The translations under genes were made by a program, and so were the position numbers. This document shows, one piece after another, positions 2,508-40,514 of a DNA stretch of 43,225 bases (the first letter of the stretch is position 1; each line of letters opens with the position of its first letter). Source of the DNA: Candidatus Undinarchaeales archaeon (GTDB taxonomy: Archaea; SpSt-1190; JASMDC01); the NCBI GenBank assembly GCA_030753015.1, contig JASMDC010000030.1, forward strand, positions 1 through 43,225, written 5' to 3'. Below the pieces are notes generated by a model. The model saw nothing but the letters and a program-made list of their open reading frames with translations. It was not told where the DNA came from and searched no databases.

Positions 2508-3823
2508 CCCCCCTTGCATGTCTTGTTGAACATGTTCTTCGCGTGCTTGATCCAATGGACCAGAGGAATGCGCGAGGGGCACGAGTAAGCGCAGGAGCCG
2601 CACTCGAAGCAGTCCATGACATGCGCGTTCGCGGCCTCCTGGAAACGGTCCTTGCGCGCCAGCCGGCCGAGGATGCTCGGCATGAGGTCCATGGGGCACA
2701 CGTCGACGCACTTGGCGCATTTGATGCAGGGTCGCTCGGGCGCATCGTCGATGTCGGTCTCGATCTGTACGAGCACGCCAGAGGAACCCTTGATGATGGG
2801 TATTTCGGAGGTGGTCTGGGCCATGCCCATCATGGGACCGCCGCCGATGAGCTTCCTGATCGGGCCCCTGGCGCCACCGCACAGCTCAAGGAGCTCTGCT
2901 GCCGAGGTGCCGATACGGACCACTAGGTTCTTGGGCTCCTTGACGGCACCGGTCACGGTGACCGCCCGCTCCACCAGGGGTTTACCCTCGTAGACCGCCT
3001 CGTGGATCGCCTTGCAGGTACCCACGTTGGACACGACACACCCCACGTCCATGGGAAGGCCGCCGGTCGGTACCTTCCGGCCGCTGGCGGCATAGATGAG
3101 CATCTTTTCGGCACCCTGGGGATACTTGACGTCCAGGGGCACAAGCTCGAACCCTGAGAAGGTAGACTGCTCAAGGAGCTTGGTGAACGCTTTGAGCGCG
3201 TCAGGCTTGTTCTTCTCGATACACACGTAGGCCTTGTCGGCATCCACGGAGCGCTTGACCAGCTCAAACCCCGAGAGGACCTTCTCCGCCATCTCGAGCA
3301 TGAGGCAGTGGTCGCAGGTGAGGAACGGCTCGCACTCGGCGCCGTTCAGGATCACCACGTCGATTGGCTTGTCCTTGGGCGGGGACAGCTTCACGTGCGT
3401 GGGGAAGGCGGCCCCCCCCAGGCCGACGATACCGGCTTTCTGGATGATGGACCTGAGCTCCTCGACGGTGAGCTTCTCGACATCCTCCTTGGAGCAACCC
3501 GAAAGTTCAACCCACGAGTCCTCCCCATCGCTCTCGATGACGATGGCCGGGCTCCGTCCCTTGGAGGGGTGAGGGCGGGTGGCGATCTCCTTCACCGTGC
3601 CGCTGATCGTGGCGTGGATGGGGACGCTGACGAACCCTCCGGCCTCGGCTATCACCTGACCCACCTTGACCGTGTCCCCCTTGGCGACGACGGCCTTCGC
3701 CGGCGCACCGATGTGCTGGGAAAGAGGGAGCACCACCTGTGCGGGCAAGGGCGCCGTTTCGGCGGGCTTGGACGCAGATAGTTTGTTGTACTGAGGGTGG
3801 ATACCGCCGATGAAGGTGGCCAT
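2504..3823 (-). CDS. rnfC: Rnf complex subunit C
   Basis: QHIGAP, GIVGLGGAAFPTHVKL, NGAECEPFLTCD, YPQGAEK, GGPMMG and two 4Fe-4S motifs (CIKCAKCVDVCP, CFECGSCAYSCP). Confidence 0.96.
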   Translation of the reverse strand: MATFIGGIHPQYNKLSASKPAETAPLPAQVVLPLSQHIGAPAKAVVAKGDTVKVGQVIAEAGGFVSVPIHATISGTVKEIATRPHPSKGRSPAIVIESDGEDSWVELSGCSKEDVEKLTVEELRSIIQKAGIVGLGGAAFPTHVKLSPPKDKPIDVVILNGAECEPFLTCDHCLMLEMAEKVLSGFELVKRSVDADKAYVCIEKNKPDALKAFTKLLEQSTFSGFELVPLDVKYPQGAEKMLIYAASGRKVPTGGLPMDVGCVVSNVGTCKAIHEAVYEGKPLVERAVTVTGAVKEPKNLVVRIGTSAAELLELCGGARGPIRKLIGGGPMMGMAQTTSEIPIIKGSSGVLVQIETDIDDAPERPCIKCAKCVDVCPMDLMPSILGRLARKDRFQEAANAHVMDCFECGSCAYSCPSRIPLVHWIKHAKNMFNKTCKGG

Positions 3824-3845
3824 TGGCTGACACTCGGAATGTAGA

Positions 3846-3858
3846 GATTATAAATGTT
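3846..3858. promoter_or_regulatory. Archaeal TATA box in the divergent rnfC/apbE intergenic region
   Basis: TTATAAAT (minus strand ATTTATAA) about 25 nt upstream of the rnfC ATG; AT island in GC-rich DNA. Confidence 0.65.
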
Positions 3859-3910
3859 ATGCCCTCCCCTCGGACGCCCCGTTAAAGCGGAGCAGAGCGA
3901 GGTCCGGACA

Positions 3911-4897
3911 ATGGACGACAGACGGATCCCAGTTGCCATCACGCTCGTTCTCATGCTGCTCCTCGCCGGATGCCAGCAGCCCCCTGGTGAGGTCGTGCGG
4001 AACGAGTCCCTCATGGGGACACTGGTGACCATCAAGGTGGTCCACGCCGATGAGCAGGCGGCCAATGCCTCCATCGACCGGGCCTTCGCAGAGATGCGGC
4101 GGATCGAAGCGCTGCTCACTAACACGGTCCCCGAGAGCGAGGTGTCCCGCCTCAACGTTCAAGGGGAAATGAAGCCCGCCAGCCCCGAGCTCATTCAGGT
4201 GTTGCAGCTCGCCGTCGAGCACGGTGAGCTCTCGGGTGGTGCTTTCGACGTGACCGTCCAGCCGCTCCTCGACCTCTACACTCATAGCTTCCGGGACCTC
4301 AAGCGCCCTCCCACCGAGGAGGAGATCAACACCACCCTCGAGCAGGTGGACTACCGACGCATCGAGCTTCACGACGGATGGACCGCCCTTCCGGCCAACA
4401 TGTCGATAACCCTGGGCGGCATCGCCAAGGGCTACATCATCGACGTCGCCTTCCGCGTGCTCCGTGCCGACGGTATCGAGAACGTCCTTATCAACGCTGG
4501 CGGTGACATCCGTGCCTTTGGCCGCAACGTCAAGGGTAATCCTTGGACGCTCGCCCTCCAGAACCCCCGCGAGGCCACCGAGTACATCACGCGCGTCCGT
4601 GCCGCCGACGCAGGAGTGGCAACGAGCGGCGACTACGAGCGGTACTACGACCCTGAGAAGAAGTTCCACCACATCGTGGATCCCACTACCGGATACTCCG
4701 CCCTCGGCCTCATCTCCGTGACCGTCATTGCTGACGAGACGGTGCGCGCTGATGCTCTTGCCACCTCTGTGTTCGTGATGGGCAAGGAGAAGGGGCTCGC
4801 TCTGGTCGAGTCGCTCGAGGGTGTCGAGGCGCTGGTCATCACCGAGGAGCGCGAGGTCTTCCGGTCGAGCGGGTTCGCCGCCCTTGAGCTACCGTGA
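3911..4897 (+). CDS. apbE: FAD:protein FMN transferase (ApbE family lipoprotein)
   Basis: Lipobox LLLAGC, MGT, GAFDVTV, LGGIAKGY, NAGGD, ATSGDYERY, HHIVDPTTG, ADALAT. Likely start ATG 3911. Fits flavinylation of RnfG/RnfD. Confidence 0.93.
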   Translation: MDDRRIPVAITLVLMLLLAGCQQPPGEVVRNESLMGTLVTIKVVHADEQAANASIDRAFAEMRRIEALLTNTVPESEVSRLNVQGEMKPASPELIQVLQLAVEHGELSGGAFDVTVQPLLDLYTHSFRDLKRPPTEEEINTTLEQVDYRRIELHDGWTALPANMSITLGGIAKGYIIDVAFRVLRADGIENVLINAGGDIRAFGRNVKGNPWTLALQNPREATEYITRVRAADAGVATSGDYERYYDPEKKFHHIVDPTTGYSALGLISVTVIADETVRADALATSVFVMGKEKGLALVESLEGVEALVITEEREVFRSSGFAALELP

Positions 4898-7887: not shown

Positions 7888-9219
7888 CTATTTATCGAGC
7901 ACCTGCTCCGGATCGTCCATCATCTCGATGAACCAGAGCACGGCAGGAAGGTTGTTATCGACCACATCGTCGATGTCCTCCTCGTCGGGATTGAACTGCG
8001 TGAAGGTGTTGCCCCATCCGCCTCCGCCTTCCAGCTCGACGGTGTAGGCGAGCATCCCCTTGGAGTCCGCCCAGTCGGTGTACGTACCGCTGGCCAGGGC
8101 CGTCCGGCCGCCGTGCATCACGTCGTACGGGCGCTCCATGAGCTCGCGCATCCCATTGCCGATGGCGCGGTAAAGCTCCTCACGCTCGCCATCCTCGGTG
8201 GTGTAGTCGGGGGCGTACTGGTACTCGCCACCATAGGAATGAAACGCCAGCGTCCCCTTGAAATCATGCTCGGCCACGAACTCGGCCATGGCCGTGGTCT
8301 CCTGCTCGCTCATGGCCTCGGGACCACGGTAGGTCTGGTGCCAGTAATTGCCGCTGGCACCGGGCTTGCCCCAGGCCTCCGAGAAGTTACGGTTGAGGTC
8401 CACACCATGGAGCGAGGACGACCTTTCGGCCCAGTTCCCCTCCTCGACGAGCTCGCTGTTATCGCGGGCGTTCTTGCGGTGGTCCGAGTCACCGTACCGC
8501 CGCACCTGCTCGGCCACGATCATCCCGCCATCGGTATTGAAGCTCGGGATTATCCAGGTGTCCCGGCTGTCCACCAACTTTGTGATATAGGCGTCCTTGC
8601 CGTAGCCGTCGACCATCGTCTTGGCCACGTCGAGGGGCACCTCCACCGCGATGGCCTCCCGGGCATGGAACTGGCCGACAAGTAGCACCTCGGTCCGCGC
8701 CTCGCGGTCCTTCACGCGAGCGTCGCTGCCGATGCGTATGGCGTAGATCGGATTACCGAGTCCACTCTTCCCGATGACCTCGACATGAGCGAGGTCCGGT
8801 GCCTTCTTCTCGAGAGCGTACAGTTCCTCGGCGACCTCCTCGGGGACGTGGTACTTGCCCAGACCACCGTCCCTGAGAGGCGAATCGGTGGGTATACGCT
8901 GCCAGGAACGGACATACTGTCCCTGCTCGACATACTTATCAAGGGCATCGTCACGGTCATAAGCGCCCCCTTCAGCGGGGAGCACCATCTCCTTGGGAAG
9001 CCGTATCTCGTAGTCGCCGAGGTCGATCCGGTAGTCGTCTGCCAGCTCGTGCTCAAGCAGCTCTTGGTGGGCGGGAGGCGTCGTTGCCGGATGGTCCGCC
9101 GCGTACGCTATTGGTGCGATAGCGGTGATGGCCGTGGCACCGAGGAGGGCATAGGTGGTGGCACGCTTCACCACACGGGCGAGCACACCCTCACCATCGC
9201 CGTCCCCGGCTTCTTCCAC
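7888..9219 (-). CDS. Secreted M14-family zinc carboxypeptidase (carboxypeptidase T-like)
   Basis: HAREA (His/Glu Zn ligands), GVDLNRNF, YRGP..SEQE, FHSYG, YTVEL; signal peptide ending AYA; leader motif IDLGDYEIRLP. Confidence 0.9.
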   Translation of the reverse strand: MEEAGDGDGEGVLARVVKRATTYALLGATAITAIAPIAYAADHPATTPPAHQELLEHELADDYRIDLGDYEIRLPKEMVLPAEGGAYDRDDALDKYVEQGQYVRSWQRIPTDSPLRDGGLGKYHVPEEVAEELYALEKKAPDLAHVEVIGKSGLGNPIYAIRIGSDARVKDREARTEVLLVGQFHAREAIAVEVPLDVAKTMVDGYGKDAYITKLVDSRDTWIIPSFNTDGGMIVAEQVRRYGDSDHRKNARDNSELVEEGNWAERSSSLHGVDLNRNFSEAWGKPGASGNYWHQTYRGPEAMSEQETTAMAEFVAEHDFKGTLAFHSYGGEYQYAPDYTTEDGEREELYRAIGNGMRELMERPYDVMHGGRTALASGTYTDWADSKGMLAYTVELEGGGGWGNTFTQFNPDEEDIDDVVDNNLPAVLWFIEMMDDPEQVLDK

Positions 9220-9263: not shown

Positions 9264-10964
9264 TTACTCGTCGTCCCAGAAGGTCTCGAGCTCGTCGGTC
9301 TTGTTGGTGACCACCCACTCGTTCGGCGAGACCTCTTCAAGGTGGTACCCGTTCTTGCCGAACCGGGATACCTCCACCTTGTCCTTGCCGTCATCCAGCT
9401 TCCAGATCTCTTTCTCTCCCATAGCCTTGATGCTTTTGAGCACGGGGATGAAGTCCTTGATGCGGCGCTTGTGCGTGAGGTCGACGGCCTCCTCCTCGGG
9501 GCCGTTGTGCTTGATGTACAGATCGCCCTCGTTGAAGGCGACAGCATAGTGGTTGTCGTCCTCCTTGACGATCTTACCCTGAGAACCCTTGAAGGACACC
9601 TCCCAGCCGGAGTCGAAGATGTAACTGTCACCATCGTGGATGAAGGCAGTGCCCTCGATGGTGGTCTTGACCTCGGGCTTCTCGTGGTAGAGCGAGAAGA
9701 GGAAGTTGGAACCCACCCAGAGGGCGGCGCCGGCGGCGGCCACGGGCACGCTGGAGACAGGCCACGCCTTGGTGGCGGCCACGGTCCCCGAGTAGGTTCC
9801 CAGGTAGACGCCGCTGCCGATGGACGACTCCACGCCCATGATCTGCCAGAAGTTCTCCGAGTAGTCGTCGTGCTCGTGCTCCTTCTTGTTGATGATCTGA
9901 TCGTGGATGGCTAAGTTGGCCTTACCGCTCATTGTACCGGAGATGGCGCTGGCCACGGTGGCCGCGCCGTAGATGCCGATGAACGCGTAACCGGGGTTCT
10001 CCCCTAAGTGCTTGAGGATGTCCGGGTGGAGCCCAAAGTAGCTGGCGCCGGTAACGGTGCCCAGCCCGGCCACGTAGAGATTGACCTTCTTTAGTTCCTC
10101 CATAGGTTTCTCGGAGTTGACGGCGTTGTCGACGACGCTTCCAAGGAAGCTCTCGCCGATAATGCCAAGGGCGGGGCTGCCGATGTTGCCGATGGAGGTG
10201 ATGGTTGAGGCGATGCCGTAAGCAGCACCCTGCTCCCACAGCTTGGGGGTGATGACGCCCAGGAGCATGGCCGCACCGACGTTCCCCATAAGGTCGCCGA
10301 CCTTAAGGACGGCGTACTCAGGGTCCTCCTTGAACAGACGGTAAAAGACCTTGAACTTGTCCATGAAGGACTTCTCGTCCATCTGGTACATCTCGAGGGA
10401 GAGATCGTCAGGGATGCCGAAGAAGCTCTTGAAGTCCTCGTTGAAACCGAACTCCTCGAACTCAACGGTCTCTTTGAGATTGAAACCGTTCCCCTTGAGG
10501 TACTCCTTGAGGCCAGGGTCAGCGTCATCGGGGACCGGCAGTTTCTTGAGGCCGATTAGAGAGCCGAAGAACTTGCCCTCCCCCCGCTCGGTGATGACCT
10601 CCGTACGGTAGGCCATGGCCGGGTGGAAGGCGGGATCCTTTACGTCATACGCCGTAAAGACCGCATCCTTACCGGCGGCCGCAGCGACGCGGTAGGCGTC
10701 CACGTGCATGCCCTCCTCGTCGGTGTGGTACACCACGGAGAACCGCGCACCGTCGTACCCGGCGTTCACCAGGTCCATGTACTGGTCCTCCAGCCCGAAG
10801 TTGGCCTTCGCGAACTCGAGATTGTTCGGGTTCAGCTGGAACTCGTCGTACTGCGCTCCCGCTACGAAGAGCGGATTCGCGTCGAGCTTGCGTGTAAGAA
10901 TCTCAGAGGCAGTGTTGTTCTCCTCTTGGAAATCCTCTTCGGCGAGGACTGCTGCATCATACAT
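9264..10964 (-). CDS. Hypothetical protein with a central multi-helix hydrophobic region and acidic soluble termini
   Basis: Long ORF with host codon usage; likely start ATG 10964 (about 26 nt from the minus-strand TTTTTAAA box) or 10982; several Gly/Ala-rich hydrophobic helices in the middle. Confidence 0.8.
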   Translation of the reverse strand: MYDAAVLAEEDFQEENNTASEILTRKLDANPLFVAGAQYDEFQLNPNNLEFAKANFGLEDQYMDLVNAGYDGARFSVVYHTDEEGMHVDAYRVAAAAGKDAVFTAYDVKDPAFHPAMAYRTEVITERGEGKFFGSLIGLKKLPVPDDADPGLKEYLKGNGFNLKETVEFEEFGFNEDFKSFFGIPDDLSLEMYQMDEKSFMDKFKVFYRLFKEDPEYAVLKVGDLMGNVGAAMLLGVITPKLWEQGAAYGIASTITSIGNIGSPALGIIGESFLGSVVDNAVNSEKPMEELKKVNLYVAGLGTVTGASYFGLHPDILKHLGENPGYAFIGIYGAATVASAISGTMSGKANLAIHDQIINKKEHEHDDYSENFWQIMGVESSIGSGVYLGTYSGTVAATKAWPVSSVPVAAAGAALWVGSNFLFSLYHEKPEVKTTIEGTAFIHDGDSYIFDSGWEVSFKGSQGKIVKEDDNHYAVAFNEGDLYIKHNGPEEEAVDLTHKRRIKDFIPVLKSIKAMGEKEIWKLDDGKDKVEVSRFGKNGYHLEEVSPNEWVVTNKTDELETFWDDE

Positions 10965-10987
10965 GAAGCCAACGGGCGCCATCGTCG

Positions 10988-11277: not shown

Positions 11278-13746
11278 CTAGGCAGCCGCCTCGGCGCCCT
11301 CAGGTGTACCCTCGCCTGACGTCTCGCCCTCGTCCTCTTTCTTCGTGATCTGGAAGTGGAAGAGCGATCGCGTCGACTGCCAGCGGATTCCGCTCTGCAT
11401 CCCCTGGTACATGTGGAAGGCCTCGGTCTGGTACTCGATGAAGGGATCCTTCTGTGCGTAAGCCCGGAGGTGGACACCGCGCTTCATCTCGTCCATGCCC
11501 AGAAGGTGATCCTTCCATGACATGTCTGCGGCGTGCAGGAGGACCTGTCGCTCCACCTGCCCGATTATCTCCGCCCCGACCTCAGCCTCCCGCTCGTGGT
11601 AGCGTTTCATGGCCTCGTTCGTGAGGTTCTCGGTCAGCTCGTCGGCGTTCTTGACCGAGCCAACGTTCAGGTCGGCCACGTCGATGCCGAAGACGGCCTG
11701 GCAGTTGTAGGTGAACTGCTTCTCGAGGAACTCGTTCTCCCACTGATGGGGCTTGGGGCCCTCAGCGGTGAAACTCTCAACTACTTCCTCTGCCGTCCGC
11801 TCGATGACGTTGTACACGTCCTGCTTCAGGTCAGGCCGCTCAAGGATTACGTTGCGGTCGTCGTAGAATATCCCTCGCTGTGTGTTCATGACCTCGTCGT
11901 ACTTCAGCAGGTTCTTGCGCATCTCGAAGTGCATGCCCTCGACCTTCACCTGCGCCTGTCGGACGACCTTGTCGATGAGCTTGCCCGATAGCGGCTCGTC
12001 CTTGTGGACCCCCGAGAAGAACTTATCAATCTTCTCCGGCCCGTAGAACCGCAGCAGCTCGTCCTCAGCGGACAGGTAGAACCGACAGGAACCGGGATCC
12101 CCCTGGCGGCCCTCACGTCCCAGGAGCTGGTCGTCGATGCGACGTGAGTCATGACGCTCGGTACCGATCACATGGAGACCTCCGATGTCGGCCACGCCCT
12201 CACCGAGCTTGATATCGGTACCGCGACCGGCCATGTTCGTGGCCACGGTCACAGCACCCTTCTGCCCGGCCTGGGCGATGATATCGGCCTCCTGCTTGTG
12301 GTGCTTGGCATGAAGCACCTGGTGGTCGATGCCACGGGCGATGAGCATATCGCTAAGGTGCTCGGACACATCGATGGAACGGGTGCCCACGAGCACGGGG
12401 CGGCCTGCCTCGTGCTGGGCCACGATGTCGTCGACGATCGCGTCGTACTTCTCCTCCGCGGTGCGGTATATCAGGTCCTGCTGGATGTCGCGCTGCATGG
12501 GCTCGTTCGTGGGGACCTGGACGACGTCCATGCCGTAAAGGGAGATGAACTCGCCCTCCTCGGTCTTTGCGGTCCCGGTCATGCCCGAGACGCGGTCGTA
12601 CATCCTGAAGAAGTTTGGGAACGTGATGGAGGCGTAGGTCTGGGAGGGCTCGCGGACCTTCATGTCGGTCTTACCGGTCGCCAGCATGTCGTTGTTGGCC
12701 TCTTTCGCCTCCAGGGCCTCGTGGAGCCCGGCCTCGTATCGCCTGCCGTGCATGAGGCGCCCGGTGAACTCGTCGACGATGAGCAGCTCGCCGTCGGAGA
12801 CCACGTAGTTCTTGTCCTTGGTGAAGAGAGAGTGTGCGGCGATGCACTGGCGTGCTGAGTGATAGAGGTGCATGGTCCGCTCGTCCGTGGGCGAGTCCAC
12901 TCCGAGGGCCTTGGCCAGCTTGTCATCCCCCCGCTCGGTGAAGAAGGCGAGATGGTCCTTCTCGTGCACCTCGTAGTCGCGCCCGGGCTCGAAGTCGCGG
13001 ACGATACGGTCCATGATGAGGTACTCGCGGGCCGTAGTGCCGGTGCGTCCGGAGATGATAAGAGGCGTCCTGCCCTCGTCGATGAGGATGGAGTCCACCT
13101 CGTCGATGATGGCGTAGTGCATGCCCCGCATGACCCGATCCTCGGGTCGCCGGACCATGTTGTCTTTGAGGTGGTCGAACCCGAACTCGTTGTTCGTCCC
13201 GTAGGTGATGTCCGCCTGGTAGGCGGCCTTGCGGTCCTCGGGGGACTCGTCATGCTGGATGCATCCCACCGACATCCCCATGAACTCATAGATGGGGGCC
13301 ATCTCCTCGGCATCGCGGCCGGCCAGGTAGTCGTTGACGGTGATGACGTGGACGCCCTTGCCCTCAATGGCATGGAGGTAGGCCGGGAGTGTCGCGACCA
13401 GAGTCTTGCCCTCGCCTGTCTGCATCTCGGCGATACGCCCTTCGTGAAGGACCACACCTCCCTTGATCTGGACATCGTAGTGGCGCATCCCGGTAACGCG
13501 GTTGCTTGCCTCGCGCACGGCGGCATAGGCTTCGGGCATGAGGTCGTCCAGGCTCTCGCCGGCAGAATAACGGTCCCGGAACTCGTCGGTTTTTCCCGCA
13601 AGCTCGTCATCGGAGAGGGTAGTCATCTCATCAGCGTAGCTGTTGACCTCCTCGACGATGCCGTCCAGGCGCTGCCGCTCGCGGTGGTTGTACGAGAAGA
13701 AGGACTTCACTCCGTCGTATAATCGATCGAGCAGCCCGTCCTCCAT
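11278..13746 (-). CDS. secA: Protein translocase ATPase SecA (no C-terminal Zn-binding motif)
   Basis: MRHYDVQ, AEMQTGEGKTL (Walker A), VTVNDYLA-like, YGTNNEFGFD, IIDEVDSILIDEGRTPLIISG, GMTGTAKTE, ATNMAGRGTDI, GTERHDSRRIDDQL.GR.GRQGDPG, YAQKDP. Confidence 0.97.
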   Translation of the reverse strand: MEDGLLDRLYDGVKSFFSYNHRERQRLDGIVEEVNSYADEMTTLSDDELAGKTDEFRDRYSAGESLDDLMPEAYAAVREASNRVTGMRHYDVQIKGGVVLHEGRIAEMQTGEGKTLVATLPAYLHAIEGKGVHVITVNDYLAGRDAEEMAPIYEFMGMSVGCIQHDESPEDRKAAYQADITYGTNNEFGFDHLKDNMVRRPEDRVMRGMHYAIIDEVDSILIDEGRTPLIISGRTGTTAREYLIMDRIVRDFEPGRDYEVHEKDHLAFFTERGDDKLAKALGVDSPTDERTMHLYHSARQCIAAHSLFTKDKNYVVSDGELLIVDEFTGRLMHGRRYEAGLHEALEAKEANNDMLATGKTDMKVREPSQTYASITFPNFFRMYDRVSGMTGTAKTEEGEFISLYGMDVVQVPTNEPMQRDIQQDLIYRTAEEKYDAIVDDIVAQHEAGRPVLVGTRSIDVSEHLSDMLIARGIDHQVLHAKHHKQEADIIAQAGQKGAVTVATNMAGRGTDIKLGEGVADIGGLHVIGTERHDSRRIDDQLLGREGRQGDPGSCRFYLSAEDELLRFYGPEKIDKFFSGVHKDEPLSGKLIDKVVRQAQVKVEGMHFEMRKNLLKYDEVMNTQRGIFYDDRNVILERPDLKQDVYNVIERTAEEVVESFTAEGPKPHQWENEFLEKQFTYNCQAVFGIDVADLNVGSVKNADELTENLTNEAMKRYHEREAEVGAEIIGQVERQVLLHAADMSWKDHLLGMDEMKRGVHLRAYAQKDPFIEYQTEAFHMYQGMQSGIRWQSTRSLFHFQITKKEDEGETSGEGTPEGAEAAA

Positions 13747-13770
13747 CAAGTTGGCCTCGGCCCCGTACGG

Positions 13771-25633: not shown

Positions 25634-27181
25634 TCACTCTTTGCCCTGCTGCGACTCCAGGTAGATCTGGAGCCACAGAGGGAGCTCGAAGGCCTCCTCG
25701 ATGGTGGGGTTCCGCTTCTGCATCAGCTCGTCCCACGACGTGTCCTCTGCGAACCCGGTGGCCTCGTACAGCTGCTTGTAATGATCGTACTCCCGCTGCA
25801 CGCTGGGGACGTAGATGTGGAGCCCCGTTGCAGTGCCATGGGACTGGGCGTTGTGCTGCTCGGCAACGACCACCTGTCCGATGGACTTTATCACCTTGTT
25901 GGCAGCATCGCGCACTGCGGGTTCGTACTTCTCGTTGGCCGCGAGCCGCTCGGCCAGGTCACCCAGGTCCACGAGGGGCTCCGGGAAACCGAGCAAAGGA
26001 TTGGTGCCGAAGTGAAGGCTTGCGTCGTTGGCCTTGTTGAACTCCTCCATGGGGACCTTCGATCCGAGCAGAGCATCGGCCAATCCATCCACGGCCTCGG
26101 CCACCTTGGGCATCTTGGCCACCTCGGTGGCAGAGAGTGTCCTGAGGTTCTGCTGGTCGTTCTCGGCCTCCTTGACGATGAGGTAGCTCATCAGCTTGGG
26201 CGAGAGCTCGGGGCGCGGGCCGTCCTTGAAGGCCTTGGAGTACTTCTCCATGACCACAAGGGCACGGTTGCCCATGATGCCCTCGTAGGGCCAGCCCTCG
26301 GCGCCCTCATTCTCCTCGCTGGCCACCAGGAAGTCGGTGACGCTCCGTACTTGGTAGGCGCCCTCGGCCGATGCCATGAGGCACGCGTCGTACCCGAGCA
26401 CGTCGATCTTGACGCCCGTCTTCTGCTGGACCTTGCCCAGAGCCTCCTGGACCTGTGCCCAAGTCATGGAATCGGTACCCGCGGAATCATCGATAATCGA
26501 GCCGGTCCAGCCCATACCGTGGTCGGAGATGACGAGCATGTAGTTCTTCGCAGGGAAGTTCTGGACGCCCCACTCCACGAAGTCCTGGAGGTTCGCAGGA
26601 TCGGCCATGTCGATCTGACCTAGCTCACCCAGAACGGGGGAGTTGAGCTCGCCCTTAGTACCATCCTTCTGGAGGTGATAGCGCCGGGCACCGGTCCACG
26701 CTCGCTTGCCCATGTCGATCTTGCCGTCTGCCTTCTCGCCGCGGTCGAGCTGGACGATCACGTCCGCGTTGTCGGTGGAGCCTATCTTCTCCATATCGTC
26801 CACATCGGCGACCTGATAGGCCTCAAGATTGTTGTCCGCGGCGGAGTAGACGAGGATGGTCCACTCCTTGCCTTCGGCCTGGTCGTCCTGGGCAGCGTAG
26901 TTGAGCGGGATGGACGACGGGAGAGTGACCTGATAGTCACCCATATCGATGACGTTGCCTTGTTTGGCCTGTTCGGTCTCGATGACGTACGCCGGCTGAG
27001 GGTCCGTTCCGGGAGGCGGGAGCGTGTTGGGGAGCATGCCGCCACCGATGCCGACAATAGCACCACCGATGGTGGCTACAAGTCCAAGCCCTGCGGCGGC
27101 GTAGGTCGCCACCTGCTTGGTAGTAAGCCCCTCTTCCTTCTCGTTCGCTTCCGGTTCAGGTTCCTGCTCGACGTACATCAT
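25634..27181 (-). CDS. Clostripain-family (C11) cysteine peptidase with conserved leader, copy 3
   Basis: KEWTILVYSAADNNLE, VQLDR, FPAKNYMLVISDHG.GW (catalytic His), GYDACLM (catalytic Cys), ASEENE..EGWPY. Confidence 0.92.
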   Translation of the reverse strand: MMYVEQEPEPEANEKEEGLTTKQVATYAAAGLGLVATIGGAIVGIGGGMLPNTLPPPGTDPQPAYVIETEQAKQGNVIDMGDYQVTLPSSIPLNYAAQDDQAEGKEWTILVYSAADNNLEAYQVADVDDMEKIGSTDNADVIVQLDRGEKADGKIDMGKRAWTGARRYHLQKDGTKGELNSPVLGELGQIDMADPANLQDFVEWGVQNFPAKNYMLVISDHGMGWTGSIIDDSAGTDSMTWAQVQEALGKVQQKTGVKIDVLGYDACLMASAEGAYQVRSVTDFLVASEENEGAEGWPYEGIMGNRALVVMEKYSKAFKDGPRPELSPKLMSYLIVKEAENDQQNLRTLSATEVAKMPKVAEAVDGLADALLGSKVPMEEFNKANDASLHFGTNPLLGFPEPLVDLGDLAERLAANEKYEPAVRDAANKVIKSIGQVVVAEQHNAQSHGTATGLHIYVPSVQREYDHYKQLYEATGFAEDTSWDELMQKRNPTIEEAFELPLWLQIYLESQQGKE

Positions 27182-27189
27182 TAACCCTC

Positions 27190-28689
27190 CTACTGGCCTC
27201 CCTTATTCTGATTCGCCCGCTCCTGGAGGAACTCGTCCCACTGGGTGTCCTCTGCGAAGTCGAGCTCACCGTACTTATCACCGTCGAAGGAGTCCTGGCC
27301 CTCTCCAGGTGGACCGTTGAAGGGCACGTATATGTGCAGCCCGTGGGCGTTGGGATGGCTGGTCTCGTTGTGCTGCTCGGCGACGACAACCTGGTCGACG
27401 GCCTCGATGACCTTTGCCGCGGCCTCGCGCACATCAGCGCCGTAGGCACCATTGGCAGAGACCTTCTCGGCCAGCTCTACTGCGTCCACGAGCGGCTCCT
27501 CAAACCACCACTGCCTCCCAAAGTGGAAGCTCTCCTCGGCGATCTTGTTGAACTCGCTGATGGGCACCTTGGACCCTCGCAGCGCCTCGGCGAATCCGTC
27601 CATGGCCTCGGCGACCTTGGGCATCTTCTCCACCTCGACGGCAGAGAGAGTAGGGAGGTTCCGCTGGTCGTTCTCGGCCTCCTTGACGATGAGGAAGCTC
27701 ATGAGCTTCGGAGTGAGCTCTGGGCGCTTACCGTCCTTGAAGGCCGTGGAGAACTTCTCCATGACCACCAGGGCCCGGTTGCCCATGATACCCTCGTAGG
27801 GCCAGCCCTCGGCACCCTCCAGCTCCTGGCTCGCCACCAGGAAGTCGGTGACGCTCCGTACCTGGTAGGCGCCCTCGGCCGACGCCATGAGGCAGGCGTC
27901 GTACCCGAGCACGTCGATCTTCACACCGGTGCGCTGCTGGACCTTGCCCAGTGCTTCCTGGACCTCGACCCAGGTCATCTCGTGGTCCCCGGAGGAGTCG
28001 TCCCCGATGGCCCCGGTCCATCCGGCGCCGTGGTCCGAGATGATGAGCATGTAGTTATCGGCGGGGTAGTTGTTCACACCCCACTCGAGGAAGTCCGCGA
28101 GCACGTCGGGATCGGCCATGTTGACCTGCCCGAGCTCGCCCATCATGGGGGAGTTGAGCTTCCCTTTCTCGGCGTCCTTCTGGAGGTGGTAGCGCCGGGC
28201 GCCGGTCCAGGCCCTCTCTCCCGAGTCGACCTGGCCCTCGGCGACCGTGCCGCGGTCGACTTGGATCACGACGTCCACGTACTTGTCAGAACCGACCGTC
28301 TCCATGTCGTCGTTGTCGGCCATGAGATACGGCTCGAGGTTGTTGTCGGCGGCCGAGTAGACGAGGACGGTCCACTCCTTGCCCTGCGTACGGGCGTCCT
28401 GGTCCGCATAGGTCAGGGGGAGGGACGAGGGGAGGGTTACCTTGTAGTCGCCCATGTCGATGACGTTACCCTGAGTGCTCTGTTCGGTCTCGGTCACATA
28501 GGCCGGACGCGGGGTCGTGTCCGGGGGCGGCTGGAACGGCGGAAGGATGTTGATCGCACCGCCGATGGCGGCTACGAGCCCAAGGCCCGCTGCGGTGTAG
28601 GCCGCGACCTGCTTGAACGTAAGCCCGTCCTCTTCTCGTTCCGGCGCTTCATCGTGCTCGTTCTCATTCTCGATATACATCATGATCAC
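27190..28689 (-). CDS. Clostripain-family (C11) cysteine peptidase with conserved leader, copy 2
   Basis: KEWTVLVYSAADNNLE, YPADNYMLIISDHGAGW, GYDACLM, GLHIYVP; GGTGA SD. Confidence 0.92.
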   Translation of the reverse strand: MIMMYIENENEHDEAPEREEDGLTFKQVAAYTAAGLGLVAAIGGAINILPPFQPPPDTTPRPAYVTETEQSTQGNVIDMGDYKVTLPSSLPLTYADQDARTQGKEWTVLVYSAADNNLEPYLMADNDDMETVGSDKYVDVVIQVDRGTVAEGQVDSGERAWTGARRYHLQKDAEKGKLNSPMMGELGQVNMADPDVLADFLEWGVNNYPADNYMLIISDHGAGWTGAIGDDSSGDHEMTWVEVQEALGKVQQRTGVKIDVLGYDACLMASAEGAYQVRSVTDFLVASQELEGAEGWPYEGIMGNRALVVMEKFSTAFKDGKRPELTPKLMSFLIVKEAENDQRNLPTLSAVEVEKMPKVAEAMDGFAEALRGSKVPISEFNKIAEESFHFGRQWWFEEPLVDAVELAEKVSANGAYGADVREAAAKVIEAVDQVVVAEQHNETSHPNAHGLHIYVPFNGPPGEGQDSFDGDKYGELDFAEDTQWDEFLQERANQNKGGQ

Positions 28690-28699
28690 CTGTTGAACA

Positions 28700-30175
28700 T
28701 CACGGACCCGACGGGGTCTGCTTCATCTTCTCTGCCCGATCCTTGAGCCACTCGTCCCACTGGGTGTCCTCGGTGAACTCGAGCTGCTCGTACGCCTCGC
28801 CGTCGTAGGACCCTGCCCACCAGCTCGACGGGACGTAGATGTGCAGCCCGTGGGAGCCGGGATGGGTCGAGTTGTGGTGCTCGGCCACAATCACCTGGTC
28901 CACGGCCTCGATGACCTTGTTGGCGGCGAGCTTCACGTCCTTGCCATACTGGTCGTTTGCGGCGAGGTTCGTGGCCAGGTCGACCACGTCCACCAGGGGC
29001 GAGCCCCAGCCGTAGTCCTGGCTGTTGCCCTCAATGGTATTGAACTCGGTGACAGGGACCTCGGACGCACGCAGGGCGACGGCGAGCCCGTTCACGGCTG
29101 ATGCCACCTTGGGCATCTTCTCGAGCTCTGTTGAGGAGAGCGTGTCGAAAGTGGCGGTATCATTGGCGCCTTCCTTGACGATGAGGTAGGAGTAGAGCTT
29201 GGGCGTGAGCGCGGGGCGGTCGGTGTCCTTGAAGGTGCGGTTGAACTTCTCCATGACGTCCAGTGCCCGCTGGCTGATGATACCCTCGAAGGGCCAGCCC
29301 TCGACGCCCTCCAGCTCCTCGCTGGCCACCAGGAACCCGGCCGCGTCGCGGACCTGATAGGCGACCTCGGTCGATCCCATGAGGCAGGCATCGAATCCGA
29401 GGATGTCGATCTGTGCACCAGTGCGCTCCTTGACCCGCTCGAGCGCCTGGTCGAGCTCAGGCGTGGACATCTGTCCGGCGTGGTGTGAGCTGTCGTCGAT
29501 GAAGCCCTCCCAGCCCGAGCCGTGGTCGGCGATGATGAGCATGTAGTGCTTGGCGGGGAAGTTCTTGACGGTGAACTCCACGAACTCCGCCAGTGTCTCG
29601 GGAGCGGCCATGTCCACCTGTCCGAGCTCCGCTAGCACCGGTGAGTTGTAGTTGACCGGGTCGGTATCCTTCTGGATGTGGTAGCGCCGGGCACCGGTCC
29701 AGTCGCCGCCCTGGGGCGTGTCGGCGGTGTATCCGCGGTCCACCTGGACCACGACGTCCATGTAGTCGTTGGATCCCAGCTTCTCCATGTCGTTGATGTC
29801 GGTGAGCTGGTCGTTCTCGAGGTTGTTGTCGGAGGCGGAGTAGATCATGACGGTCCATTCCTTGGCCTCAGCGGGAACCCGGGCGTCCTCGCCGTAAACG
29901 AGAGGGATGTCCTTGGGCAGAGTGACCTGGTAGTCGCCCATGTCGATGGTGCCGCCCTTGACGGCGTCCTGCACTTCCGTGACATAGGCGGGCCGGTAGG
30001 GTCCAGTCCCCGACGCGGGGGTCGCGTCCATGGGTCCCACGGCCGTGCCGATGGCGCCACCTACGGCGGCTGCGAGGCCGAGGCCCAGTGCGGCGTACAC
30101 GCCCACCTTCTTGAGCGTGAGCCCTTCCTTCTCGTTCTCTATTTCCGTTTCGTACTCCGTCTCCATTATCATCAT
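28700..30175 (-). CDS. Clostripain-family (C11) cysteine peptidase with conserved leader, copy 1
   Basis: KEWTVMIYSASDNNLE, FPAKHYMLIIADHGSGW, GFDACLMG, GLHIYVP. Confidence 0.92.
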   Translation of the reverse strand: MMIMETEYETEIENEKEGLTLKKVGVYAALGLGLAAAVGGAIGTAVGPMDATPASGTGPYRPAYVTEVQDAVKGGTIDMGDYQVTLPKDIPLVYGEDARVPAEAKEWTVMIYSASDNNLENDQLTDINDMEKLGSNDYMDVVVQVDRGYTADTPQGGDWTGARRYHIQKDTDPVNYNSPVLAELGQVDMAAPETLAEFVEFTVKNFPAKHYMLIIADHGSGWEGFIDDSSHHAGQMSTPELDQALERVKERTGAQIDILGFDACLMGSTEVAYQVRDAAGFLVASEELEGVEGWPFEGIISQRALDVMEKFNRTFKDTDRPALTPKLYSYLIVKEGANDTATFDTLSSTELEKMPKVASAVNGLAVALRASEVPVTEFNTIEGNSQDYGWGSPLVDVVDLATNLAANDQYGKDVKLAANKVIEAVDQVIVAEHHNSTHPGSHGLHIYVPSSWWAGSYDGEAYEQLEFTEDTQWDEWLKDRAEKMKQTPSGP

Positions 30176-30203: not shown

Positions 30204-31622
30204 TCATTGCTCCCCTTCCACTCCGTCGGGATTATCCGTCCCTGTGGGCGGTGGAGCGGAACCGGGATCGGACTGCAGAGCGCGGTCCAACTGGATAATG
30301 CCGTGGCCGTAATACTGATCCCAGCCGCTGCTGCCGCGGTCCAGCGCGGTGGTCTCAAGCGCGGTGCGCACCCGTTCTGGCGTGTTGAAATCGCTGGAAT
30401 AGCCGATCAGCACGGCGGCCGCCCCTGCCACGTGCGGCGCCGCCTGGGAGGTGCCGCTATTGTAGATGTAGGTGTCGTCAAGGCCGGTGGAGCCGATGTC
30501 CGATCCGGGCGCGGCCAGGTCTACAAAATCGCCGTAAGTGGAGAAACGAGAGCGGTTGTCGCTGGAGTCCGTAGACGCCACTGCAATCGTGTTCTCGTAG
30601 GCAGCCGGGTAGTCGATGGTGTTGCTGCCGGAGTTGCCGGCGGCAGTCACCACCGTCACGCCGTGCTCCACCGCATAATTGACGGCGTCTTCCAACGCCC
30701 TGGAGTTAAAAGGGGCTCCCAAGCTCAGATTAATGACGTCCGCACCGTTATCCGTGGCGAAGATAATGCCGTCGACGATGGCGGAGTACCTGCCGGCGCC
30801 GTTCGAACCCAGCACCTTGACCGGCATAATGCGCGCCCCCCACGAGACGCCGGCGACGCCCTCCCCGTTGTTGCTGACCGCCGCTGCAATTCCCGCCACG
30901 TGCGTACCGTGCCCCTGATCGTCCTGCGGGTTGTCGTCCCGGTTGACAAAGTCGTATCCAGGCACGATCTTGGCTGCCAGGTCAGGGTGGTCGAGGTCAA
31001 CCCCGGTGTCCAACACGGCGATTATGACCGAGTTCGATCCGGTACTCAGGTCCCACGCCTGCGGAGCCCGGATGCGCTGCGGGCCGTACTGCAAAGACCA
31101 ATATGTATCGTTGGGCGTTATGTCGAAAGCATGGGCCACGTAGTTCAACTCGGCATATTCCACCAGCCCTGAGTTGTTCAGCGCATCCAACAGTTTCTTG
31201 GCGTCACCATCGCCGGCGCGCAGCAGCTGAACGTCGAGGGAGGAGATCTCGCCCTCGATCCGCGCATCCAGGCCATCGATGAGCGCATCCGAGTCGCTCT
31301 TGTACAAATCTCTACTGAACTTCACCAGCACTTCGTCCGGCACGTACCCCTCGCTGTACACCATGGGGGTGCCCTCGGGAAGGGTGACCTGGTAGTCGCC
31401 CATGTCGATGACGTTCCCCTGGCTGCTGTGCTCGATCTCGGTCAGATAGGCCGGCCGCGGGGTCGTGCCCGGCGGGGGCGGGATGATACTTATGGCCCCG
31501 CCAATGGCGGCCACAATGCCCAGGCCCAGGGCGGCGTACCCGCCGACCTTCTTGAGCGTGAGCCCTTCCTTCTCATTCTCCAAGTCCGTTTCGTACTCCG
31601 TCACCATGATCATCACTCCCAC
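30204..31622 (-). CDS. S8 subtilase (thermitase-like) with the same conserved leader
   Basis: Triad IAVLDTG / QGHGTHVAG / SGTSQAAPHVAG, oxyanion AAGN, prodomain YVPDEVLVKF...VEYAELNY; exact start among 31622/31613/31607 uncertain. Confidence 0.95.
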   Translation of the reverse strand: MGVMIMVTEYETDLENEKEGLTLKKVGGYAALGLGIVAAIGGAISIIPPPPGTTPRPAYLTEIEHSSQGNVIDMGDYQVTLPEGTPMVYSEGYVPDEVLVKFSRDLYKSDSDALIDGLDARIEGEISSLDVQLLRAGDGDAKKLLDALNNSGLVEYAELNYVAHAFDITPNDTYWSLQYGPQRIRAPQAWDLSTGSNSVIIAVLDTGVDLDHPDLAAKIVPGYDFVNRDDNPQDDQGHGTHVAGIAAAVSNNGEGVAGVSWGARIMPVKVLGSNGAGRYSAIVDGIIFATDNGADVINLSLGAPFNSRALEDAVNYAVEHGVTVVTAAGNSGSNTIDYPAAYENTIAVASTDSSDNRSRFSTYGDFVDLAAPGSDIGSTGLDDTYIYNSGTSQAAPHVAGAAAVLIGYSSDFNTPERVRTALETTALDRGSSGWDQYYGHGIIQLDRALQSDPGSAPPPTGTDNPDGVEGEQ

Positions 31623-32671
31623 TCCACCCAGTCGGGATTGTAGGTGCCCAGGGGCAGGTCGTCCCCGAACATCGATTGTGGTGAATACCCTAGTTGCGAA
31701 TAAGCGACATCCCGGGGGATGAGCAGATCGCGAACGTTGTTATCGGTGAGATAGGCCTTACCGTCGATGATCGTCTCGGTCCAGGCGTGACCTCCGCCCT
31801 TCATCGTCCCGAGCACCACCACCGAATCGTAACCCTTGGCCTCGAGCAGCGAGTTGGAGGCGAGTGCGTAGTCCTCGCAGTCCCCCCTGCCGAGGGAAGT
31901 GAGGAAGTGCTCCGGGTTCTGCCAGTAGTCGGTGTGACCGAGATGCTCGGCGTCGAAGAAGTACTTCCCCATGAGCGGTTTGCCGTCGGCGAACCGCATG
32001 AACTTGATACCGGATATGGTGTTCTCGCCGATATTTATTGAGCTGGGAAGGTCGCGGACCTCGAGGTTGTTGGCGTAGCCCTGGACGATCTCACTGTCCG
32101 GTGTGATGTAGGACGAGGGATCGTTGGGCATGTAGAAGCCCCGCTGTTCGCCGATCTCCTGGTGCCTGAGCGAGGGGAAGCCGTCGGGGATGCCATCGCT
32201 GTTCGCGTCAGCGTTATCGGGGTGGAGGTCGTAGGCGTCAGCGAGCCCGTCACCGTCCCGGTCGGGGAGCATGAAGTCGGGGTCCTTGCCGTCGATGATA
32301 CCGTCAGCGTCCACGTCAGGATTGGACCAATCCCAGTCCCGGCCGTCGAGGATGCCGTCCCCGTCGATGTCGGGATTACCGGGGTGAGGGTCGATGGAGT
32401 CGTAGAGGTGGTCGCCGTCGGCGTCCGCCATGGCCTGTTCGGGAGAGAGCGTGGGAACGCTGTCGTCGCCCAGCACACGGGTCTTGGGGGGCCCGGGCTC
32501 GGCCTCCTTGCCGAGCAGTGCACCAAGGACGAGCCCACCGGTGATGGTGAGGCCGACCGCTATGAATCCCTTGGCCACAGATTCGGCGTTGAGGTCCTCG
32601 GTGACCGTGTAGCCGTCGGCCGCCGTGGCGGTCCCGGCCTCATCGGTCTCGAGGTCGATGTCCATCGCCAT
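31613..32671 (-). CDS. Membrane-anchored transglutaminase-like cysteine protease with Asp-rich Ca-binding repeats
   Basis: TM helix; D.DGDG..D repeats; DYWQNP..FL...GDCEDYAL, GGHAWTE, downstream D (Cys-His-Asp triad). Confidence 0.82.
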   Translation of the reverse strand: MAMDIDLETDEAGTATAADGYTVTEDLNAESVAKGFIAVGLTITGGLVLGALLGKEAEPGPPKTRVLGDDSVPTLSPEQAMADADGDHLYDSIDPHPGNPDIDGDGILDGRDWDWSNPDVDADGIIDGKDPDFMLPDRDGDGLADAYDLHPDNADANSDGIPDGFPSLRHQEIGEQRGFYMPNDPSSYITPDSEIVQGYANNLEVRDLPSSINIGENTISGIKFMRFADGKPLMGKYFFDAEHLGHTDYWQNPEHFLTSLGRGDCEDYALASNSLLEAKGYDSVVVLGTMKGGGHAWTETIIDGKAYLTDNNVRDLLIPRDVAYSQLGYSPQSMFGDDLPLGTYNPDWVEWE

Positions 32672-39251: not shown

Positions 39252-40514
39252 TCAGGCCGTTGCCCAGTCCGCTTCGTAGTCGCCGTACTCTACCTCGTCG
39301 TTGAACGCATAGAGCGGATTCCAGTCGGTGTGTGACTCGTAGAAGGCGTCCCGCTCAACGAGACTGTCGTAGTCCACCACGTATCGAGTGCCGTCGATGT
39401 CCGTCTCCAGCCAGGCATGACCGCCCTCGTTGTTGGGCTGGGTGAACCCCACGACGACCATGGACGGATTCCCCCGGGCGATGAGGATGGACGAGGCGGT
39501 CAGGGCGTAGTCCTCGCAGTCACCCACCCTGCCGTTGGCCAGGTAGTTATCGGGATTGATCCAGTAGTCGGACTCGTTGAACTGGTCGATGTCACGCTCG
39601 TAGCGCTGGAACAGGTCGGTGCCGTCGGCGAGCCGGAGCTCGTCGTTCTCGATCTCCAGCCGGTTCGCATACCCCAGGACCACCGGATCGTCGGGATCCA
39701 CGTACTCGTGGGCGTCACGGGCATGCAGGAGCAGGCCCGAGGACGAGGAGCTGTAGTCGCGGAGCGCAGGGCTCCCGTCCAGGTTCCCGTCACCGTCATG
39801 GTCCGCGTCCCGCGGGTAGAGGTCGAAACCGTCCATGAGGCCGTCGCCGTCGCTGTCGGTGCTGTCCGGGTTCGGGTCCTCCCCGTCGATGAGAAGGTCG
39901 TTGTCGCAGTCGGGGTTGTATATGCATGCGTTCGTTTCGTCACCATCGAGCAGGCCGTCGCCGTCCACGTCAGGGTTCTCCAGGTCGGGATCCAGACCAT
40001 CGAGCAGACCGTCCGCGTCATGGTCCGCCTCGGAGATATAGGGATCAGCACCATCGAGCAGGCCGTCGCCGTCCACGTCAGGGTTCTCCATGTCGGGATC
40101 CTTTCCATCGAGGAGGCCGTCATTATCGTAATCGGACCGCGTGGGGTATGGATCGGCCATGTCACCGATGCCGTCACCGTCGGTGTCCGGGTTCCCGCTG
40201 TCAGGGTCGAGGCCGTCGAGGAGACCATCTCCGTCGGCGTCCGGATTCAGAGCCGCCGGGTCCGATCCGTCCATGATGCCATCGCCGTCCGAGTCGGGGT
40301 TCAGGAGCTTGGAGCCGCCTAGGAGCTCGCTCATGTTGGATGCCCCGTCCTTGTCGAAGTCGGCGGTGGCGAGGTAGCCCGCTCCCAGCACTCCACCCAT
40401 CACCGCGCCGAAGGTCAGATGTCTCCTGTCCAGATCATTGGTACCGCTGTAGCCCTCCACCAGTTCGGACCTTCGTTCCCCGTCCGACTCCAGTTCGATC
40501 TCGCGCTTGTACAT
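39252..40514 (-). CDS. Transglutaminase-like cysteine protease with a long Asp-rich Ca-binding (TSP3-like) repeat region; paralogue of 31613..32671
   Basis: About 10 PD.DGDGL.DG.D repeats; DYWINP...GDCEDYAL, GGHAWLE, VVD triad. Confidence 0.83.
   Translation of the reverse strand: MYKREIELESDGERRSELVEGYSGTNDLDRRHLTFGAVMGGVLGAGYLATADFDKDGASNMSELLGGSKLLNPDSDGDGIMDGSDPAALNPDADGDGLLDGLDPDSGNPDTDGDGIGDMADPYPTRSDYDNDGLLDGKDPDMENPDVDGDGLLDGADPYISEADHDADGLLDGLDPDLENPDVDGDGLLDGDETNACIYNPDCDNDLLIDGEDPNPDSTDSDGDGLMDGFDLYPRDADHDGDGNLDGSPALRDYSSSSSGLLLHARDAHEYVDPDDPVVLGYANRLEIENDELRLADGTDLFQRYERDIDQFNESDYWINPDNYLANGRVGDCEDYALTASSILIARGNPSMVVVGFTQPNNEGGHAWLETDIDGTRYVVDYDSLVERDAFYESHTDWNPLYAFNDEVEYGDYEADWATA
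39941..40101. repeat. Near-exact intragenic direct repeat (53 bp, 108-bp period)
   Basis: caccatcgagcaggccgtcgccgtccacgtcagggttctcca(g/t)gtcgggatcc at 39941 and 40049, encoding DPD[LM]ENPDVDGDGLLDG. Confidence 0.85.

Follow-up and report, generated by a model that had tools for sequence, protein, structure and literature searches.

The 43,225-nucleotide contig JASMDC010000030.1 of Candidatus Undinarchaeales archaeon SpSt-1190 (assembly GCA_030753015.1), referred to over its whole length as the window, encodes several hydrolases of unrelated fold that begin with a similar N-terminal leader. The leader of an M14 carboxypeptidase, which ends in a conserved segment already pointed out in a preliminary description of this DNA, is the starting point of the present analysis, in which the source genome (G000, 3.85 Mb) was compared with a sister genome of the same genus-level lineage (G001) and with other archaea. 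The open reading frame (ORF) at 7888..9219 of the minus strand encodes a 443-residue Peptidase_M14 protein (PF00246 at residues 132-424; E 7.5e-51, 173.9 bits against a cut-off of 21.6). In the 48-sequence M14 alignment A5, H185, E188 and H327 are invariant and E395 is nearly so; we take these to be the zinc ligands (HxxE...H) and the catalytic glutamate, respectively. The leader comprises residues 1-75 (8995..9219, minus strand), as seen in the translation, the alignments A1 and A2, a profile built without the M14 protein and an AlphaFold2 model. It is followed by a 45-residue linker and the catalytic domain (7888..8994, minus strand; PF00246, predicted local distance difference test score, pLDDT, of 85-98 from residue 121). 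Read from the translation, the N-terminus consists of an acidic tail (MEEAGDGDGEG, residues 1-11), the basic pair K18-R19, a hydrophobic stretch at residues 20-40 ending in AYA, a Pro/Thr spacer (42-49), the tripeptide PAH (49-51) and the segment IDLGDYEIRLP at residues 65-75 (8995-9027, minus strand). This is the layout that the preliminary description had given for positions 8985-9219, which correspond to residues 1-78 of the protein.

The same type of leader is found on a cluster of peptidase genes on the minus strand of the window. Three of these genes encode C11 (clostripain-type) proteins: C11a (gene 28700-30175) carries it at residues 1-87 (29915..30175) with the motif IDMGDYQVTLP at 77-87, C11b (gene 27190-28689) at 28429..28689 with IDMGDYKVTLP at 77-87, and C11c (gene 25634-27181) at 26918..27181 with IDMGDYQVTLP at 78-88. 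The fourth encodes an S8 subtilase (gene 30204-31622), whose leader at 31377..31622 has IDMGDYQVTLP at residues 72-82. In the S8 protein the segment is followed by a prodomain of its own, of the Fervidolysin N-terminal type (residues 91-160), and only then by the S8 domain. As the preliminary description had stated, the motif therefore takes up a corresponding position on three catalytic folds that are unrelated to one another, C11, S8 and M14. Six parts can be distinguished in the leader, namely an acidic tail of 10-25 residues, one or two K/R residues with a conserved tyrosine, a Gly/Ala-rich hydrophobic core of 18-20 residues ending in a small-x-small site (GGA or AYA), a Pro/Thr-rich spacer, a PAY strand, and a hairpin with the pattern hydrophobic-D-x-G-x-Y-x-V-x-hydrophobic-P.

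The genome-wide scan for the strict pattern [IV]D[ML]GDY.[VI].LP, which had been suggested as a check, returned five matches in 33,493 six-frame segments of at least 60 residues from the 3.85-Mb genome, all of them on this contig (three C11, one S8 and one M14). Since the pattern had been derived from these same copies, independent profile tests were run. With a profile of the four non-M14 leaders, the M14 ORF ranked first among 41,900 non-training segments (E 6.6e-4, 21.0 bits; next match E 2), and with a profile of 12 non-M14 leaders, members from the sister genome included, it was again the top match beyond the training set, at E 2e-4 (22.7 bits). Shuffled controls place the match beyond chance, the real M14 N-terminus scoring 25.7 bits and the best of the 2000 shuffles 9.6 bits, so that none of them attained the real score. 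The similarity extends over much more than the motif: the alignment A1 of the five window leaders has 16 invariant columns, spread from G18 to P87, which include G18, K22 and Y27 before the helix, P62-A63 in the PAY strand, and I77-D78, G80-D81-Y82 and L86-P87 in the final segment. Of these, Y27, A63, Y82 and P87 remain invariant among the 10 leaders of A2. Judged from these alignments, the conserved unit is a homologous N-terminal leader of approximately 85-95 residues rather than a free-standing 11-residue motif, and in this respect the preliminary description, which took the motif as the unit, has to be revised. Known families offer no counterpart, as scans of the five leaders at E values of up to 10 gave no relevant family in Pfam and no match in NCBIfam except an unrelated one on M14, and the best match of a profile search of the Protein Data Bank (PDB) with the leaders had an E value of 0.57.

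Within this family, the M14 leader and the S8 leader have different histories. The M14 leader shares 24-27 identical residues of 73-75 aligned (approximately 33%) with the other leaders, but keeps 7 of the 11 motif residues. The motif is thus the best-conserved part of an otherwise diverged leader, which argues for selection and not for a fresh copy. The S8 leader, in turn, is at the DNA level a mosaic of its neighbours, with 100 of 117 aligned bases (85%) identical to C11a in the first 120 nt and 98 of 117 (84%) identical to C11b thereafter, while C11a and C11b themselves agree at 177 of 243 positions. Given this mosaic structure and the lack of an S8 gene in the corresponding cluster of G001, the S8 copy is local and recent, and the M14 leader is, on the alignment evidence, older than it and under constraint. 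The argument against simple local duplication made in the preliminary description accordingly applies to M14, which has diverged and yet kept the motif, and fails for S8.

Regarding its distribution, the A1 profile found matches in two of 41 archaeal genomes, G000 (5 places) and G001 (10 places), and the wider profile A2 found five solid matches and one fragment in G000 and 11 matches in G001. The 11 carriers of G001 are six C11 proteins, the M14 orthologue, an alpha/beta hydrolase, two DUF302-type proteins and a 275-residue protein without family assignment, so that six kinds of protein bear the leader. Although the hairpins of the hydrolase, DUF302 and family-less proteins have diverged (VVVDGYEVQLP, TDMGSYGVQMP, MDRPAYEVQIP and LTVDGYTVNLP), they retain the Tyr, Val and Pro of the hairpin together with the upstream PAY. 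A 69-codon open frame in G000 (C53, approximately 2151-2234, minus strand) starts like the leader of the 275-residue protein (P0085) and breaks off after the beginning of the helix; a disrupted orthologue or a break in the assembly is the probable explanation.

Searches of larger collections did not extend this range. Two matches were obtained among 1174 candidates in an N-terminal-region search of 5.8 billion proteins, and A2 identified seven carriers in 1.84 billion representative proteins, these being the S8 protein of the window and six proteins identical or very similar to products of sister-genome genes. Cluster look-ups for six of the A2 carriers and for the matches of the C11 search placed several of them on shared contigs. 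One of 23 matches was confirmed in the genome_contigs pattern scan, and none of the 40 pattern matches in a metagenome-contig scan with A1. Homologues of the host enzymes behave in the same manner: the check proposed in the preliminary description shows that 81 of 82 M14 homologues lack the segment, the sole carrier being the 91%-identical orthologue. In the 81 non-carriers, which have ordinary N-termini and cover at most 85% of the query (at most 75% in 80 of them), similarity begins at the catalytic domain. Among the 120 C11 homologues examined, eight carry the leader, all of them from the lineage and at least 42% identical (BLASTP figure of the search tool), and the four whose clusters were looked up lie on contigs shared with other leader proteins. 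The nearest C11 outsiders (at most 41% identity) start directly with low-complexity sequence before the KKWT strand. One further candidate, P0194, was discarded as a C11 carrier because its pattern match is a chance hexamer. As far as these searches can tell, the leader is restricted to one genus-level lineage, sampled by two genomes and a few further public proteins with crude gene calling. The expression 'old, selected motif' used in the preliminary description is consequently supported with regard to selection, while its age can be maintained only within the genus.

Structure prediction places the leader outside the catalytic domains. In the AlphaFold2 model of C11a, residues 1-73 have pLDDT values below 50, and two strands are predicted at residues 76-78 and 83-85 (pLDDT 63-76). 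In the M14 model, a helix is predicted at residues 10-42 and strands at 62-67 and 70-75 (pLDDT 44-50), so that a two-stranded hairpin across the motif is predicted in both. Clostripain (9cip_B) aligns to residues 99-487 of the C11a model only (Z 37.9, rmsd 2.7 over 361 residues), and the match begins at model residue 99, which corresponds to residue 52 of the clostripain chain. As the fold match is confined to this range, the C11a leader occupies a pre-pro position. The M14 leader has no likeness to the carboxypeptidase propeptide Propep_M14 (PF02244), which gave no Pfam match either in the whole M14 protein or in residues 1-95. In an Atlas feature search with residues 40-125, the Propep_M14 cluster came first at 0.79, below the noise level, and only sub-noise matches were obtained overall.

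The first parts of the leader may correspond to the n-h-c layout of a Sec signal: reading of the five window leaders shows K/R before the core, a core of 18-20 residues and GGA or AYA at its end, but the flank is net-acidic. Their cores are weakly hydrophobic: G+A makes up 0.40-0.60 of the residues, compared with a median of 0.22 for 151 canonical-like stretches at N-termini of the same genome (from a crude ORF census), and Kyte-Doolittle means are 1.3-1.8 against a mean of 2.33. Other classes of signal do not fit the window leaders. The twin arginine of Tat signals is lacking (KK, KQ, KQ, KK and KR in the five leaders), RR being present in the G001 hydrolase and in P0094, and no cysteine directly follows the hydrophobic core in the five leaders by reading, as a lipobox would have it. 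Class III (type IV pilin-like) signals have a short basic leader cleaved after Gly/Ala directly before the hydrophobic core; this class was considered and rejected for the site EKEG/LTLKKV, where the basic residues come after the glycine and the preceding leader is acidic. The acidic tail is translated at least in S8 and C11b, as no ATG, GTG or TTG codon lies between tail and helix in these two genes; in C11c, a GGAGG sequence is located 5 nt upstream of the ATG.

Taken together, we consider with moderate confidence that the motif segment forms the final part of a pre-pro leader of Sec type, which would be specific to the lineage, transferable between proteins and equipped with a shared hairpin handle. 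The hosts are typical extracytoplasmic hydrolases according to their Pfam families, and these hosts, together with the Sec-like parts and their N-terminal extension, lead us to read parts 1-3 as an extended export signal; from sequence we infer the export, its topology, the cleavage and the existence of a partner. The protein would be inserted with the N-terminus inside and the C-terminus outside, and the signal would be either cleaved at the small-x-small site or retained as a membrane anchor, and the spacer would set the protein at a distance from the membrane. The PAY strand and the hairpin, the most conserved piece, would form a common extracytoplasmic handle, an early-mature element outside every catalytic fold, that could be read by one shared partner, for instance a receptor in the envelope or a factor for maturation or export. 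Different hydrolases may thereby receive the same routing, or the same tethering until they are activated. Maturation of subtilases detaches the catalytic domain from whatever precedes the prodomain. Since the S8 protein has its own prodomain after the hairpin, its maturation would cut the catalytic domain from the leader, which argues that the hairpin acts in export, sorting or zymogen tethering, and not as a permanent anchor of the active enzyme. Its presence on C11, S8, M14, alpha/beta hydrolase, DUF302 and family-less proteins would fit a tag for a common partner and hardly a fold-specific inhibitor.

Several points weigh against this interpretation. The hairpin itself is predicted with a pLDDT of only 63-76 in C11a and 44-50 in M14, and a 37-residue profile of the post-helix part alone, although it ranks M14 first, does so with an E value of only 0.23. 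No candidate partner of the hairpin was found, and a net-acidic N-terminal flank is unusual for Sec signals. In the M14 gene, moreover, in-frame GTG codons are present at V12, V16 and V17, and a start at one of them would give an ordinary short signal (MVKRATTY...AYA/A), so that the acidic tail of this protein may be untranslated; its likeness to a G001 C11 gene product starting with MEEADGDG extends over 8 residues only. Finally, all carriers come from one genus, so that part of the conservation could be due to recent exchange of sequence among genes, of the kind that the S8 alignments show.

Compared with known systems, the leader resembles several in logic. Substrates of accessory-Sec systems (SecA2/SecY2) are characterised by a KxYKxGKxW motif, a glycine-containing core, a transport domain at the start of the mature protein and serine-rich adhesin cargo. 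With these signals the leader shares a length of approximately 90 residues, a weak, Gly-rich core, a conserved element after the signal and genes located beside a SecA paralogue. It differs from them in its archaeal host, in the position of the conserved motif after the core and not before it, in the acidic instead of basic extension, in its hydrolase cargo, in the lack of a TIGR03715-type match and in the presence of one SecY only. The YSIRK-G/S and ESPR extensions, known from Gram-positive surface proteins and autotransporters, are likewise conserved, family-independent additions to Sec signals that recur on unrelated secreted proteins within one group of organisms. Their motifs are located in or ahead of the n/h-region; the present leader combines an acidic tail with a hairpin approximately 30 residues after the core, and has no Pfam match to either extension. 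Like the pre-pro regions of clostripain, subtilases and M14 peptidases, the leader is N-terminal to the catalytic domain and outside the conserved fold, but here one segment occurs on three mechanistic classes and on non-peptidases, similarity to Propep_M14 or I9-type propeptides is lacking, and S8 has an additional prodomain of its own. C-terminal sorting signals (PGF-CTERM/archaeosortase, PEP-CTERM, LPXTG and GlyGly-CTERM) follow the same logic of a tag for one factor, with a short motif, a membrane helix and a charged tail on unrelated surface proteins; the leader is N-terminal, has a Pro-rich spacer of approximately 25 residues between motif and helix, and no sortase-like partner was found. 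On the sequence features compared, it thus resembles extended signals and lineage-wide sorting tags without having the defining features of any of them. YSIRK, ESPR and accessory-Sec additions mark dedicated routing of surface proteins, and to our knowledge no such N-terminal addition with a post-signal hairpin has been described in Archaea. One leader moved onto at least six kinds of extracytoplasmic protein provides a handle both for defining part of the secretome of an uncultured lineage and for seeking the factor that reads it; its interest would be greater still if the link to SecA described below proves real.

The gene at 11278..13749 (minus strand) encodes a bacterial-type SecA (NCBIfam equivalog NF009538; 1008.8 bits against a cut-off of 814, residues 16-801). 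One ORF (9264..10982, minus strand) separates it from the M14 gene, which is therefore two genes downstream of secA, as had been noted in the preliminary description. This ORF encodes 572 residues without family match, with several Gly-rich hydrophobic stretches by reading, and its stop lies 44 nt before the M14 start. In G001, the M14 gene is also located two genes downstream of SecA (orthologue on contig C10, at about 80858-83323), and the intervening position, compared by position and not by alignment, is occupied by a 622-residue ORF without Pfam match (L045:8959-10827). Downstream of a second SecA paralogue of G001 (C36:3068-5542), at a distance of 362 nt, lies a DUF302 gene that bears the leader. 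SecA was found in two of the 17 genomes of the phylum, with one copy in G000 and two in G001, and neither in the other 15 nor in 39 other archaeal relatives, which gave only weak helicase-like matches. Each of the two genomes has one SecY, and that of G000 is of archaeal type and encoded beside archaeal uL30. The reviews PMC6098224 and PMC13673990 state that archaea have no SecA. Our literature search returned no paper on SecA with Undinarchaeota and, for 'archaeal SecA', only PMC13673990, which denies that one exists.

The archaeal origin of the region is indicated by the syntenic region of G001, which lies on a 136-kb contig (C10) that also encodes MCM, TFE-alpha, topoisomerase VI A and B, aIF-1A, the KH protein arCOG04150 and Rio1; these informational genes speak against a mis-binned bacterial piece. 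The G000 genome, in turn, encodes the archaeal ribosomal protein S8e and lacks the bacterial S20p, and a search of this genome for small-subunit (SSU) rRNA returned nothing. With 3.6-3.85 Mb, G000 and G001 are larger than the other 15 genomes of the phylum in the collection (0.6-1.2 Mb). The lineage may be related to a DPANN group of small genomes while having a large one itself, or it may be a deep lineage that has been misplaced.

A second type of leader, called DLE after its sequence, is also encoded in the window. It has the pattern M-Y-x-x-D-L-E-[ST]-D-G-Y ... A-[DE]-G-Y ... [DE]-D-L-[SN], followed by a Gly/Ala-rich helix. Its profile (A7) located it at 27 places in G000 and at 30 in G001, and 39 other archaea gave no match. 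The two members in the window are transglutaminase/BTLCP-like protease genes on the minus strand: the first (31613..32671; PF01841 and PF06035, DLE profile E 6.8e-17) overlaps the start of the S8 gene, and the second (39252..40514) has a LapG match with an E value of 3.9e-6. The remaining 25 places in G000 include C29:219820-226200 and C20:43154-44617. In two DLE members of this genome (C77:946 and C74:14786) a lipobox-like LSGC follows the helix, which supports the reading of acidic-tail helices as export signals. The one DLE leader scanned alone (32500-32671) matched no Pfam or NCBIfam family. The end of the DLE leader, DDLSxKxVGYAAL, resembles the EGLTxKxVxxYAAL of the PAY leaders, but a comparison of the two profiles was not significant (E 0.067, probability 0.8%), and a common origin is not claimed.

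Four other explanations have to be considered beside a transferable leader with a hairpin handle. The leader could be the address for the horizontally acquired SecA of the lineage, in which case its weak, Gly/Ala-rich, acid-extended signals would avoid co-translational targeting and pass to SecA after translation, and the early-mature PAY-hairpin would play the part that the transport domain has in accessory-Sec substrates. In bacteria, weak hydrophobicity of the signal core favours SecA over the signal recognition particle, and the leader cores rank among the lowest 0-8% in hydrophobicity. Neither SecA nor the leader was found outside one genus (g1) among the genomes searched, the M14 gene keeps its place two genes downstream of SecA in both genomes, and the C11/S8 cluster lies on the same strand as SecA at a distance of 12-18 kb. 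In G001, two of the five leader loci adjoin a SecA, for which a chance of less than 1e-3 can be roughly estimated, and three DLE-type leader genes are located 0.9-3 kb from SecA1. However, all of this comes from one lineage, so that the co-occurrence counts as a single observation. No Sec gene lies near the G001 loci on C4 and C24, the only SecY is of archaeal type and there is no SecY2, acidic n-regions impair SecA-dependent export in bacteria, and a genome with approximately 40 leader genes, counting both types, can be expected to show some adjacency. We regard a SecA address as a tentative and rather unlikely explanation. The wider scenario, in which the lineage would have taken up a bacterial SecA and evolved two families of acidic, weakly hydrophobic signals (PAY-hairpin and DLE) that route hydrolases post-translationally through it, also appears unlikely. 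If true, it would represent the first case of export driven by SecA in Archaea, and the substrates would be recognisable by their code. What drives post-translational export through Sec in archaea is an open question, and an archaeal chromosome on which SecA lies beside genes with unusual leaders makes it testable in vitro.

The position of the PAY-hairpin, where clostripain has its pre-pro region, and its pLDDT of 63-76 in C11a, higher than that of a free loop, would suit a pro-segment acting in cis, which would pack against the catalytic domain to inhibit it or to help it fold and would be removed when the enzyme is activated. This is nevertheless distinctly unlikely, as the same short hairpin would then need to match the folds of cysteine, serine and metallo-peptidases as well as an alpha/beta hydrolase, DUF302 and a family-less protein. 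In addition, S8 already has a prodomain after the hairpin, and in M14 the hairpin has a pLDDT of 44-50 and the protein has no Pfam Propep_M14 match. The neighbouring BTLCP-like proteases suggest another role, since LapG cleaves an N-terminal retention module: the conserved segment might be a recognition or cleavage site for these LapG-like cysteine proteases, which would release membrane-tethered hydrolases from their N-terminal anchor. The overlap of one protease gene (31613-32671) with the S8 start, the LapG match of the other (39252-40514; E 3.9e-6) and the conservation of both beside the cluster in G001 are consistent with it. The matches to C93/LapG, however, stay under the curated cut-offs (22 against 27 bits and 26.2 against 320 bits), the conserved part has no LapA-like di-alanine site, and no such protease is encoded near the M14, C4, C24 and C36 loci, all of which makes this role very unlikely. 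Lastly, the resemblance could have no function beyond its history, being due to chance or to a segment at the 5' end of genes that spread neutrally through local duplication and gene conversion. The S8 mosaic, the confinement of all carriers to one genus and the E value of 0.23 for M14 with the post-helix profile would agree with such a history. It is already disfavoured, and in our view highly improbable, given that none of 2000 shuffles reaches the M14 score, that the M14 gene, 18 kb away and with a leader of only approximately 33% identity, keeps seven of the 11 motif residues, and that Y, V and P of the hairpin, like the PAY strand, are preserved in the diverged hydrolase, DUF302 and family-less copies.

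Some further genes of the region deserve mention. Adjoining the first DLE gene, a 326-residue ORF without family (32671-33651, minus strand) begins with a long acidic tail, followed by VGKY and a Gly-rich helix, a PPNTG spacer and, further on, SKFVLRLPVP; it may be a very diverged relative of the PAY-hairpin leader that no profile detected. Next to SecA, G001 has an insertion relative to G000 (C10:83396-90000, corresponding to L045:13396-20000) with CpeT, three small DLE-leader genes, a transglutaminase-like gene, an FG-GAP protein and DUF1838. The stretch of the window from SecA to the C11 cluster (13822-24130, minus strand) contains three large ORFs of 609, 951 and 1887 residues, in which the only domain match is a Peptidase_M23 in the largest, and the corresponding region of G001 contains an extra ORF of 1318 residues. 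The 951- and 1887-residue proteins have ordinary short, Leu-rich signal peptides, unlike the leader proteins. No tRNA gene was detected in the window. Positions 263-4897 encode an Rnf electron-transport cluster (rnfC, D, G and E), with the gene for an ApbE flavin transferase on the opposite strand.

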